Positions 3,689 to 11,068 of a stretch of DNA of 14,290 nucleotides are shown piece after piece (position 1 is the first letter of the stretch; the number at the start of each line of letters is the position of its first letter). The notes under the pieces were generated by a model. That model saw nothing but the letters and a program-made list of their open reading frames with translations. It was not told where the DNA came from and searched no databases. A program made the translations under genes and the position numbers. Location of the stretch: IMG/VR virus record IMGVR_UViG_2778261163_000002, positions 1 to 14,290 of that record; one strand, given 5' to 3'. Source of the stretch: a virus (lineage: Duplodnaviria > Heunggongvirae > Uroviricota > Caudoviricetes).

Positions 3689-3841
3689 ATTAAAGAGCAT
3701 TAGTTCAGATGTGAATTGACATTTTCATGGCGCAGGGTAGAGCCAGCGTGGTTGTCCGCTTTGCGTCAAAACCAGATATTACCAGATTTAGACATATATT
3801 CCCGATAGCCCTGCTCTGATGCTACACTCTGTGCTATTTTC

Positions 3842-4528
3842 ATGACCCCAATAAAAATATTTATGACTATTGCTGATTTCAAACGGCCTAAATTGGAGCT
3901 CCCAAACGGGGCAAACAAACTACTACTGCACTCTTGCTGTGCTCCATGTTCCGGTGAAGTGATGGAGGCGCTTCAGGCCTCGGGAATCGACTACACCATC
4001 TTTTTCTACAACCCGAACATTCATCCTCAGAAAGAGTATTTAATTCGTAAGGATGAAAATATTCGCTTTGCTGAACAACACGGCGTGCCGTTTATCGATG
4101 CTGATTACGACACCGACAACTGGTTTGAACGTGCCAAAGGAATGGAATGGGAGCCTGAGAGGGGGATCCGTTGTACCATGTGTTTTGACATGCGTTTTGA
4201 GCGGACAGCGTTGTACGCTGCTGAAAATGGTTTCAGTGTGATCAGCAGTTCACTGGGCATTTCACGCTGGAAAAATATGCAGCAGGTTAACGAGTGTGGG
4301 CGGCGAGCTGTTGCGCATTATCCGGGTATGGTGTACTGGGATTATAACTGGCGCAAGCAGGGCGGCTCGTCCCGTATGATTGAAATCAGCAAGCGCGAAA
4401 AATTCTATCAGCAGGAATATTGTGGCTGTGTGTATTCTCTGCGCGATACCAATCTACACCGCAAATCTCAGGGACGCCCTCTTATCAAAATTGGCCAACT
4501 CCACTACGGAAAAGAAGAGAAGGAGTGA
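3842..4528 (+). CDS. queH: epoxyqueuosine reductase QueH homolog (DUF208 family)
   Basis: 228-aa ORF with HSCCAPCS near the N-terminus, YNPNIHP, RCxxCF and a C-terminal YCGCVYS motif, recalled as hallmarks of the Fe-S, B12-independent QueH family; start could alternatively be the ATG at 3863. Confidence 0.7.
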
Positions 4529-4765
4529 TTTTATGGATCACCTTTCTGATTGATTTCATATTGGCGAGGTGACGTGAGTTAAGTAGAATGGCTGCGGGTG
4601 CTTGAGGCTATCTGTCTCAGGCATGAACACTGAAAGGCAGATAGAGAAAAGCCCCAGTTAACATTACGCGTCCGGCAAGACGCTTAACATTAATCTGAGG
4701 CTCAATCTATGAACGGCAAATCTAGGTTAGCCTCTTACGTGCCGAAAGGCAAGGAGAAGCAGGCT

Positions 4766-4921
4766 ATGAAGCAGCAAAAGGCGATGTTAATCGCCCTGAT
4801 CGTCATCTGTTTAACCGTCATTGTGACGGCACTGGTAACGAGGAAAGACCTCTGCGAGGTACGAATCCGAACCGGCCAGACGGAGGTCGCTGTCTTCACA
4901 GTCTACGAACCTGAGGAGTAA
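4766..4921 (+). CDS. hokD: Hok/Gef-family type I toxin, HokD (RelF)-like, 51 aa
   Basis: MKQQKAMLIALIVICLTVIVTALVTRKDLCEVRIRTGQTEVAVFTVYEPEE matches the recalled HokD sequence almost exactly; AAGGAG 9 nt upstream; the ORF continues in frame upstream to 4709, which is probably not biological. Confidence 0.8.
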   Translation: MKQQKAMLIALIVICLTVIVTALVTRKDLCEVRIRTGQTEVAVFTVYEPEE

Positions 4922-5064: not shown

Positions 5065-5457
5065 ATGAAGAAACTTGTTTTAGTCGCAGGTGTAATGATT
5101 GCAACAGTAATGTTGGGAGGGTGTGCAGCAAAGGTCGATCCAGCGTTGAAAGCAGAAGCAATGAAGCCACTAACATGTAATGATGAAAAGCAATGTGACT
5201 TTTATTGGAAACGAGCGCAATTCTGGTTGGCTAATAATTCCTCATGGAAAATTCAAACGGCGACAGACACGCTAATTTCCACTTATAATCCCTCTCCAAA
5301 TAGTCCATTCCTCGCTTATCAAGTGAGTAAAATGCCAAATGAAGATGGATCCTCAAGAATTTTCATCAAGCCTTTTTGCGATAATATGTTTGGCTGTCAA
5401 CCAAACCCCTATCAGGCAGTTGTTTCCTTTAAAAACTTCGTTAAAACAGGGCAGTAG
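5065..5457 (+). CDS. putative lipoprotein (130 aa), four conserved-looking Cys, unknown function
   Basis: Signal peptide with lipobox LGG-C (MKKLVLVAGVMIATVMLGGC); GGGAG before the ATG; AT-rich codon usage compared with flanking genes; terminators on both sides. Confidence 0.7.
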   Translation: MKKLVLVAGVMIATVMLGGCAAKVDPALKAEAMKPLTCNDEKQCDFYWKRAQFWLANNSSWKIQTATDTLISTYNPSPNSPFLAYQVSKMPNEDGSSRIFIKPFCDNMFGCQPNPYQAVVSFKNFVKTGQ

Positions 5458-8204: not shown

Positions 8205-8230
8205 AAAACCCGCCCACAAGCGGGTTTTTT
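8205..8230 (+). terminator. tR'-like rho-independent terminator
   Basis: AAAACCCGC-CCACAA-GCGGGTTTT stem-loop followed by a T-run. Confidence 0.65.
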
Positions 8231-8297
8231 GTGCCACTTATCTCGGATAGACATGGTGAATGCGCTGGTGGAGGAGATAAGGGTGATTTTTGAATGC

Positions 8298-8326
8298 TTG
8301 CAACATTGATTTCGTAACGTTATTAT
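8298..8326 (+). promoter_or_regulatory. candidate sigma70 promoter for the tRNA cluster
   Basis: -35 TTGCAA (8298..8303), 17-bp spacer, -10 TATTAT (8321..8326); predicted start about 8333, just before the first tRNA at 8336. Confidence 0.5.
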
Positions 8327-8335
8327 CCTGCGCCC

Positions 8336-8411
8336 GGCCCTTTAGCTCAGTGGTGAGAGCGAGCGACTCATAATCGCCAGGTCGCTGGTTCAAATCCAGC
8401 AAGGGCCACCA
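8336..8411 (+). tRNA. tRNA with anticodon CAT, closest to tRNA-Ile2 (lysidine, ileX/ileZ-like); Met not excluded
   Basis: Cloverleaf folded by hand: acceptor GGCCCTT/AAGGGCC, D arm GCTC/GAGC, anticodon loop CTCATAA, T loop TTCAAAT, encoded CCA; close to recalled E. coli ileX. Confidence 0.8.
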
Positions 8412-8412
8412 G

Positions 8413-8489
8413 CCGCCACTAGCTCATCAGGAAAGAGCGTCAACCCTTTAAGTTGAGTGTGCGAGGTTCGAGTCCCCGATGGCGGTCCA
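8413..8489 (+). tRNA. tRNA-like gene with aberrant features, anticodon loop CCTTTAA (UUU, Lys-like); possible pseudo-tRNA
   Basis: D arm GCTC/GAGC, anticodon stem TCAAC/GTTGA, T loop TTCGAGT, encoded CCA; but C at position 33 instead of the invariant U, a mismatch in the T stem and a mismatch at acceptor pair 7-66. Confidence 0.5.
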
Positions 8490-8491
8490 GT

Positions 8492-8567
<76 letters not shown>

Positions 8568-8570
8568 TAT

Positions 8571-8645
<75 letters not shown>

Positions 8646-10594: not shown

Positions 10595-10888
10595 TTATTG
10601 TGAGCAATACACACGCGCTTCCAGTGGAGTATAAATGCCTAAAGTAATAAAACCGAGAAATCCATTTACGAATGTTTGCTGGGTTTCTGTTTTAACAACA
10701 TTTTCTGCGCCGCCACAAATTTTGGCTGCATCAACAGTTTTCTCCTGTCCAATTCCCGAAACGAAGAAATGATGGGTGATGGTTTCCTTTGGTGTTACTG
10801 CTGTCGGTTTGTTTCCAACAGTAAACGTCTGTTGAGCACATCCTGTAATAAGCATTGCCAGAGCGGCAGAAAACAACATTTTTTTCAT
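10595..10888 (-). CDS. bor: Bor lipoprotein (serum-resistance, Iss family)
   Basis: 97 aa from MKKML...ITGCAQQTFTV...LEARVYCSQ, near-identical to recalled lambda Bor; start taken at the internal ATG (10888), preceded by AGGA. Confidence 0.85.
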   Translation of the reverse strand: MKKMLFSAALAMLITGCAQQTFTVGNKPTAVTPKETITHHFFVSGIGQEKTVDAAKICGGAENVVKTETQQTFVNGFLGFITLGIYTPLEARVYCSQ

Positions 10889-11068
10889 CTTATTATCCTG
10901 CATTGTTAAAAACGGCAGAATCCTATGTGACAACAATTAAACGATAGTTAAATGGATTGATGAAAATTAAAACTATATAGGTGGATGCTCAGCCTATTGG
11001 AGGTAGTCAGGATTTGAATGTCAGTCTGTTGTCGGCATTCTGGCAATGCAATTTGGATAAAGCGGGGA

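Follow-up and report, generated by a model that had tools for sequence, protein, structure and literature searches.

We propose that a gene lying between the replication module and a toxin-antitoxin module of a lambdoid prophage probably encodes a working epoxyqueuosine reductase (QueH), and that this gene is carried as mobile cargo. The protein would be an iron-sulfur, cobalamin-free enzyme that reduces epoxyqueuosine (oQ) to queuosine (Q) at position 34 of tRNA-Asp, tRNA-Asn, tRNA-His and tRNA-Tyr, and the gene, equipped with its own promoter-like sequence, would be cargo rather than a core gene of the phage. The QueH family and the RefSeq name of the protein are already known; what is new is the mobile setting. 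The window (the whole stretch of 14,290 nucleotides that was analysed) contains a plus-strand open reading frame that, in its longest reading, spans 3842-4528 and encodes 228 aa. The conserved start is the ATG at 3863, common to all homologues compared, which yields a protein of 221 aa; the ATG at 3842 is not kept in the plasmid copies. An identical 221-aa protein is held in RefSeq as WP_000150294.1 under the annotation 'epoxyqueuosine reductase QueH'. The gene and the motifs of its protein are laid out as follows.

Positions 3836-3862, plus strand: leader, short and A/U-rich, with no obvious Shine-Dalgarno sequence by direct reading; it holds the non-conserved ATG 3842.
Positions 3863-4528, plus strand: queH coding sequence, 221 aa and stop, supported by Pfam, RefSeq, a PDB match, AlphaFold/Foldseek and dN/dS.
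Positions 3929-3949, plus strand: H30-S-C32-C33-A-P-C36 motif (228-aa numbering), corresponding to H7, C9, C10 and D13 of Thermotoga maritima QueH.
Positions 4172-4183, plus strand: C111-T-M-C114 (CxxC) motif, both Cys invariant in a 30-sequence alignment.
Positions 4406-4429, plus strand: Y-Q-Q-E-Y-C194-G-C196 motif, with Y, Q, Y, C, G and C invariant in the same alignment; the codons of C194-G-C196 occupy 4421-4429.

The open reading frame matches the Pfam QueH profile along its full length [profile search against PF02677: E 1.1e-65, 221.5 bits, profile positions 1-174 of 175], and, with a curated cut-off of 23.5 bits, this match is far beyond chance. The protein also matches the solved T. 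maritima enzyme in the PDB (7lc5, E 8e-22), and an NCBIfam HMM search of it gave no match, despite the RefSeq name QueH. We aligned the window protein with 29 QueH sequences from Thermotogae, Nitrospirota, Synergistetes, Dependentiae and Gammaproteobacteria. All invariant columns of this alignment are kept in the window protein, including the His and six Cys (HxCC, CxxC, CGC) that we take to be the ligands of the metal centre, following the solved T. maritima structure, and further columns of several Asn, Pro, Glu, Arg, Ser, Lys, Tyr and Gln; within HSCCAPC, the H, CC, A and P are invariant across the 30 diverse sequences. An AlphaFold model made from the QueH alignment has a mean pLDDT of 93, and in Foldseek this predicted model matches 7lc5 closely [TM 0.93 (target-normalised), rmsd 1.2 A, 180 columns], with the next matches being PP-loop tRNA thiolases, e.g. 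TtuA, at far lower scores. The earlier note had assigned the frame to DUF208/QueH from its CCAPC and CGC motifs and had suggested the profile search reported here; sequence, conserved residues and predicted fold all bear this assignment out.

The alignment agrees only in part with the expectation, also expressed there, of iron-sulfur Cys residues and a catalytic Asp. The six Cys are kept, but the position of T. maritima Asp13 is occupied by Cys36. This last position of HSCCAPC is D in Thermotoga-type QueH and C in all of the gammaproteobacterial QueH aligned, as well as in those of Dependentiae. Because Cys is present in every aligned gammaproteobacterial QueH, the replacement of Asp13 is a trait of the clade and not a loss or a defect, and because it recurs in the Dependentiae sequences, the column is not one that defines the family. 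The PDB includes C9S and D13N mutants of T. maritima QueH, which marks both positions as mechanistically important.

The gene is common and it is mobile. Among complete E. coli genomes, the queH frame is found in 995 of 5426 (about 18%), with nearly all copies being chromosomal and with carriers that include O157:H7 and ST131. In IMG/VR, 188 viral contigs encode a QueH relative, and in all 80 of the 80 loci fetched queH comes after DUF977 and before hok and/or DUF968, with variable replication genes. One isolated phage with the gene is Escherichia phage HannyBb, where queH occupies the same slot and is annotated as a 'hypothetical protein', and the PHROGs family phrog_3217 (L002 6095-6781) corresponds to the QueH family under the label 'unknown function', its profile starting after the HxCCAPC motif. 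By tblastn, queH is also present on 305 plasmids (Klebsiella 99, Escherichia 68, the remainder in others); the three plasmid loci examined are all IncF, and in each queH is a lone cargo gene with different neighbours. The other 'phage' matches of the tblastn search are mostly short faecal contigs that carry no annotation, or bacterial DNA under a wrong label, and were left out of phage carriage. Two records named 'Acinetobacter phage MD-2021a' (328 kb and 378 kb; L166, CAKLQH020000001.1) contain soxR, tadA, transporters and other chromosomal genes, and look like bacterial chromosome rather than phage.

To describe the constraint on the protein, we compared the window gene with four copies from other elements. 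The differences are 6 non-synonymous and 33 synonymous against HannyBb (dN/dS 0.040), 2 and 18 against a Shigella prophage (dN/dS 0.026), 9 and 49 against a Salmonella IncF plasmid (dN/dS 0.035), and 21 and 88 against a Klebsiella plasmid (dN/dS 0.026), and in none of the 166 copies examined is the frame interrupted between the conserved core and the stop. Since the differences are almost all silent and the frame stays open, QueH is under strong purifying selection while residing on mobile DNA.

The gene moves between contexts as a unit of about 0.8 kb that consists of an extended -10 promoter-like motif and the open reading frame. The edges of the unit were placed by aligning the window with HannyBb, two Klebsiella plasmids and one Salmonella plasmid. 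The similarity common to these contexts extends from 75-110 nt before the ATG to a few bases past the stop, with a left boundary at about 3747-3798 and a right boundary at about 4535, which gives the module sharp edges. The elements of the unit outside the coding sequence are the following.

Positions 3754-3777, plus strand: degenerate inverted repeat GTCCGCTTT ... AAACCAGAT, recognised by eye and by alignment with four other copies.
Positions 3799-3828, plus strand: promoter-like region, with TTCCCG (3799-3804, weak -35-like), an 18-nt spacer and an extended -10 TG-C-TACACT.
Positions 4529-4540, plus strand: right edge of the queH unit, where the plasmid similarity stops; the hok/sok module begins at about 4531-4576.

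The inverted repeat marks the left edge of the region that the window has in common with the Salmonella IncF plasmid and HannyBb; in HannyBb the repeat is perfect (GTCTGCTTT/AAAGCAGAC), and it may be the remnant of a hairpin that insulated the unit. The extended -10 motif, TGCTACACT at 3820-3828, predicts a transcript start near 3835. All prophage and plasmid copies retain this element as TGCTACACT, or as TGCTAAAAT in one locus (L005), it reads TGCTACAAT or TGCTACACT in the copies of Enterobacter, Kluyvera and Scandinavium, and the variants seen in other copies are TGCTAAAAT, TGCTACAAT or TGCTATATT. Within the 60-nt upstream stretch, TGnTAnnnT occurs at 29 of 85 loci, in comparison with 2.8% of control stretches, and the genera without it have, by eye, other promoter-like sequences at the same place. 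A consensus promoter scan of the window called nothing specific at queH; it missed the candidate promoter because the -35 is weak. With the upstream motif conserved as part of the unit, queH seems to carry its own native promoter along. A terminator scan of the window detected none on either side of queH, and when the sequence after the stop was folded for four queH copies, the hairpins were no better than those of shuffled sequence. The most direct view of the unit in two unrelated settings comes from an IncF plasmid of Klebsiella (L003 5894-6726) and the chromosome of Enterobacter hormaechei (L088 5912-6744), which share 833 bp at 95% identity; beyond these 833 bp the two loci have no similarity, and there is no transposase nearby.

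Pfam scans of the window's open reading frames, together with Rfam, identify in order a CI-like repressor (minus strand), a cro-like gene, YdaT, a replication initiator, DUF977, QueH, sok/hok, DUF968, RusA, antiterminator Q, tRNAs, a holin, DUF1327, a lysozyme, Rz, Bor (minus strand), HNH, TerS and TerL. The window is a lambdoid prophage, as the earlier note had supposed and as both the neighbouring genes and the related prophage loci confirm, and queH is an accessory gene placed between the replication module (DUF977) and hok/sok. Directly 3' of queH, at 4596-4921, lies a hok/sok type I toxin-antitoxin.

Positions 4596-4771: sok RNA (Rfam RF01794, 111.9 bits).
Positions 4709-4921: Hok-family open reading frame.

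This right flank, and not queH, is the part that matches 933W and many Stx phages: the hok/sok module is common to many phages without QueH, and 59 other phage records match only this flank, without queH. In an Rfam scan of the window and the three plasmid loci, no cobalamin or preQ1 riboswitch lay near queH, the only hits being sok, CopA-type RNAs and tRNAs, and PADLOC returned no defence-system match for QueH or its neighbours. Several further features of the prophage and its relatives are recorded here in their own right. The open reading frame at 5065-5457 (130 aa, G+C 0.40) belongs to phrog_16082 of unknown function, has no match in a Pfam search, occurs in some of the related prophages only, and could represent a further cargo insertion. 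The gene for Bor lipoprotein, at 10595-10936 on the minus strand, follows the lysis genes on the opposite strand; bor is a classic lysogenic-conversion gene of lambda, and in related prophages its slot holds a GNAT acetyltransferase instead. A closely related QueH prophage has, at the tail-fibre end, the genes cdtABC for cytolethal distending toxin type I (L167 7029-9129, equal to NZ_AP017610.1 2115028-2117128).

Outside mobile elements, the nearest relatives of the gene are chromosomal queH. The protein is 87-91% identical to the chromosomal QueH of Enterobacter, Kluyvera and Scandinavium and 77-86% identical to that of Erwinia, Serratia, Pectobacterium, Rahnella, Proteus, Providencia and Photorhabdus, and these close Enterobacterales homologues all have HSCCAPC; the chromosomal QueH of Acinetobacter, about 78% identical, has the same motif. 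The upstream flanks are alike within each genus, which indicates stable chromosomal queH loci. To account for this pattern, we propose that the queH unit was captured from a chromosomal queH of Enterobacterales and would now circulate in E. coli, Shigella, Salmonella, Klebsiella and Enterobacter, on plasmids and in lambdoid prophages.

In E. coli this mobile gene meets a resident enzyme. All 5426 complete genomes contain queG at an identity of at least 95%, and hence a mobile QueH in E. coli is always a second reductase. QueG is described as cobalamin-dependent in the abstract of the source (PMC5175355). The statement made from the window alone, that enterobacteria normally use QueG, holds for E. 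coli, but it is too broad for the group, since many Enterobacterales, including several Enterobacter, have a chromosomal QueH.

E. coli is not known to synthesise cobalamin de novo, and oQ accumulates in the absence of B12. Given that QueG needs a cofactor that E. coli has to obtain from its environment, the element would provide its host with a cobalamin-independent route to complete Q, such that a lysogen or a plasmid host may finish Q whatever the B12 supply. What a host would gain from a second oQ reductase is conjecture, and we grade any particular benefit, be it to the host, the phage or both, below the proposal that an active QueH is carried as mobile cargo. Our tentative extension of that proposal, which we regard as possible but somewhat doubtful, is that queH, equipped with a promoter, is a fitness gene under selection, spread by the prophages and conjugative plasmids of Enterobacteriaceae in the gut, and that it uncouples Q completion from the supply of B12. 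If true, the step from oQ to Q would be a control point exploited by mobile elements; it would influence how NAU-rich genes are translated and might also bear on colonisation or on phage-host dynamics, in lineages that include ST131 and O157:H7.

Decoding at the codons for Asp, Asn, His and Tyr is influenced by queuosine. The same activity might serve the phage. Were that so, most QueH would come from the early rightward transcript once the phage is induced, raising Q and lowering oQ on host tRNAs so that NAU-rich phage mRNAs are read well or a host response is altered. The gene is co-oriented with the replication and nin-type genes, and since the scan placed no terminator between it and DUF977, early rightward transcription after induction should extend through queH as well; as part of the rightward early operon, queH would thus also be transcribed during lytic growth. 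The isolated HannyBb is a viable phage with the gene, and a preprint reports that infection of Shewanella by phage induces queG, the enzyme of the oQ-to-Q step, with a rise in Q (bioRxiv 10.64898/2026.03.05.709803), a result which shows that regulation of this step can form part of phage-host encounters. In the phage genes of the window, 58-64% of the codons for Asn, Asp and His are NAU; however, these NAU/NAC ratios, taken from the window genes alone, are unremarkable, the unit is equally conserved on plasmids and on an Enterobacter chromosome, neither of which has a lytic programme, and it keeps a promoter-like element of its own. We consider service to the phage unlikely as the principal role, though it can be true together with a mobile QueH that is active in its host. 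A recruitment of the protein to some other substrate, such as 7-deazaguanine in phage DNA, another epoxide, or the countering of a host defence that targets tRNA, is highly improbable. Phages do use queuosine-pathway enzymes for DNA modification (PMC6884629), and the exchange of Asp for Cys relative to the solved enzyme makes another substrate conceivable, but the protein shares 77-91% identity and the same motif with the chromosomal QueH of related bacteria, PADLOC identified no link to defence, and Hutinet et al. found no oQ-type DNA base (PMC6884629). Scans of the window's open reading frames revealed no DpdA/TGT-like transglycosylase and no preQ0-synthesis genes, and the annotation of two complete QueH prophages likewise contains no DpdA/TGT, no preQ0-synthesis gene and no other queuosine or 7-deazaguanine gene, which makes a role in DNA modification unlikely; one of these two prophages carries cdtABC. 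Redundancy with a universal queG might also suggest a passenger without function, decaying or hitch-hiking. The substitution pattern contradicts this (dN/dS of 0.026-0.040, and no interrupted frame among the copies), all of the invariant residues are kept, and the unit has been captured repeatedly together with its promoter-like element, so that we regard it as the least credible reading of all.

The earlier note had further suggested that QueH and nearby phage tRNA genes form one co-selected translation-tuning package. It had reported Ile2-CAU, Thr-UGU and Gly-UCC less than 4 kb away; the distance is right (3.8 kb downstream of queH), but there are four genes, Lys-UUU having been missed, and the CAU gene is called Ile by PGAP.

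Positions 8336-8645: tRNA cluster of four genes, CAU, Lys-UUU, Thr-UGU and Gly-UCC (ARAGORN and Rfam).

Both components concern tRNA and both lie in one prophage, but the package does not survive closer comparison. Queuosine occurs only on tRNAs with GUN anticodons (PMC5372724), and since there is no GUN anticodon among the four phage tRNAs, none of them can carry it. The tRNA sets also vary: among 36 QueH prophage loci with downstream sequence, surveyed over a range of 6 kb, the same four-tRNA set is present in 7 and a three-tRNA version of it in 1, a CAU/Arg-UCG/Arg-UCU set in 11, and host tRNAs only in 1, while the other 16 are without a tRNA gene within 6 kb. The full tRNA cluster is present in 602 E. 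coli genomes, against 985-995 for QueH (985 being the count for most of queH). The tRNAs are located beyond Q and a strong T-run hairpin, their transcription unit differs from the early operon of queH, and on plasmids QueH occurs alone. The queH gene and the tRNA cluster are independent modules of a mosaic phage, and their joint selection is more improbable still than a change of substrate. Within the cluster region itself, a hairpin with a T-run lies at 8207-8232 after Q, and a promoter-like TTGCAA-17 nt-TATTAT at about 8289-8317 stands just before the tRNAs, which may therefore have their own promoter. The phage tRNA-Lys(UUU), at 8413-8489, scores 37.7 bits against the Rfam tRNA model, where its three neighbours score 65-74, and its anticodon loop reads CCUUUAA by eye, with C in place of the usual U33; this tRNA may be a variant able to evade an anticodon nuclease directed at tRNA-Lys.

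We return to QueH as mobile cargo and to what it adds. Our literature search, which combined QueH, DUF208 or epoxyqueuosine with phage or prophage and included the accession, found no paper on a prophage or plasmid QueH, and likewise no prior description of queH on lambdoid prophages and IncF plasmids, of how frequent it is, or of its coexistence with queG. A 2019 survey reported no homologues of QueA, QueG or QueH in the viruses that it analysed (PMC6884629). A strongly conserved, B12-independent enzyme is carried on mobile DNA by nearly a fifth of complete E. coli genomes and by hundreds of plasmids, and such wide and conserved mobile carriage suggests that completing Q matters enough in nature to be selected. 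The mobile gene offers a simple genetic handle on the difference between oQ-tRNA and Q-tRNA, and its recognition closes an annotation gap in the phage tools based on PHROGs and in HannyBb, where members of this family have gone unnamed.

Among known systems, the phage morons and lysogenic-conversion genes, such as bor and lom, offer one comparison. Like them, queH is a small extra gene with a promoter-like sequence, situated between conserved modules and missing from related phages, and bor itself is present in the same window. No terminator, however, was detected after the window queH, and we infer its expression in lysogens. The Dpd-type clusters, in which DpdA is accompanied by FolE, QueD, QueE and QueC, offer another, in that both borrow enzymes of the queuosine pathway (PMC6884629). 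Those clusters insert preQ0-type bases into DNA, whereas the window holds only the last, tRNA-specific step, without a transglycosylase.

The closest likeness is to the QueH family itself (DUF208, PF02677/IPR003828; 7LC5), shared in the full-length match, the predicted fold and the invariant His and six Cys, and the window copy differs from the T. maritima enzyme in having Cys for Asp13 and in being borne by a prophage or plasmid instead of a chromosome. With the chromosomal queH of Enterobacterales it shares 77-91% amino acid identity and HSCCAPC, and with the closest genera also the same extended -10; those genes keep genus-conserved locations, whereas the window copy lies between phage modules and recurs in unrelated contexts. 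QueG of E. coli performs the same reaction, as far as family annotation and the published abstracts describe it, but it is a protein unrelated to QueH, it requires cobalamin, and it is a core gene (5426 of 5426 genomes). In the usual pattern, which membership of the family does not require, QueH replaces an absent QueG, whereas the QueH of the window stands alongside it.
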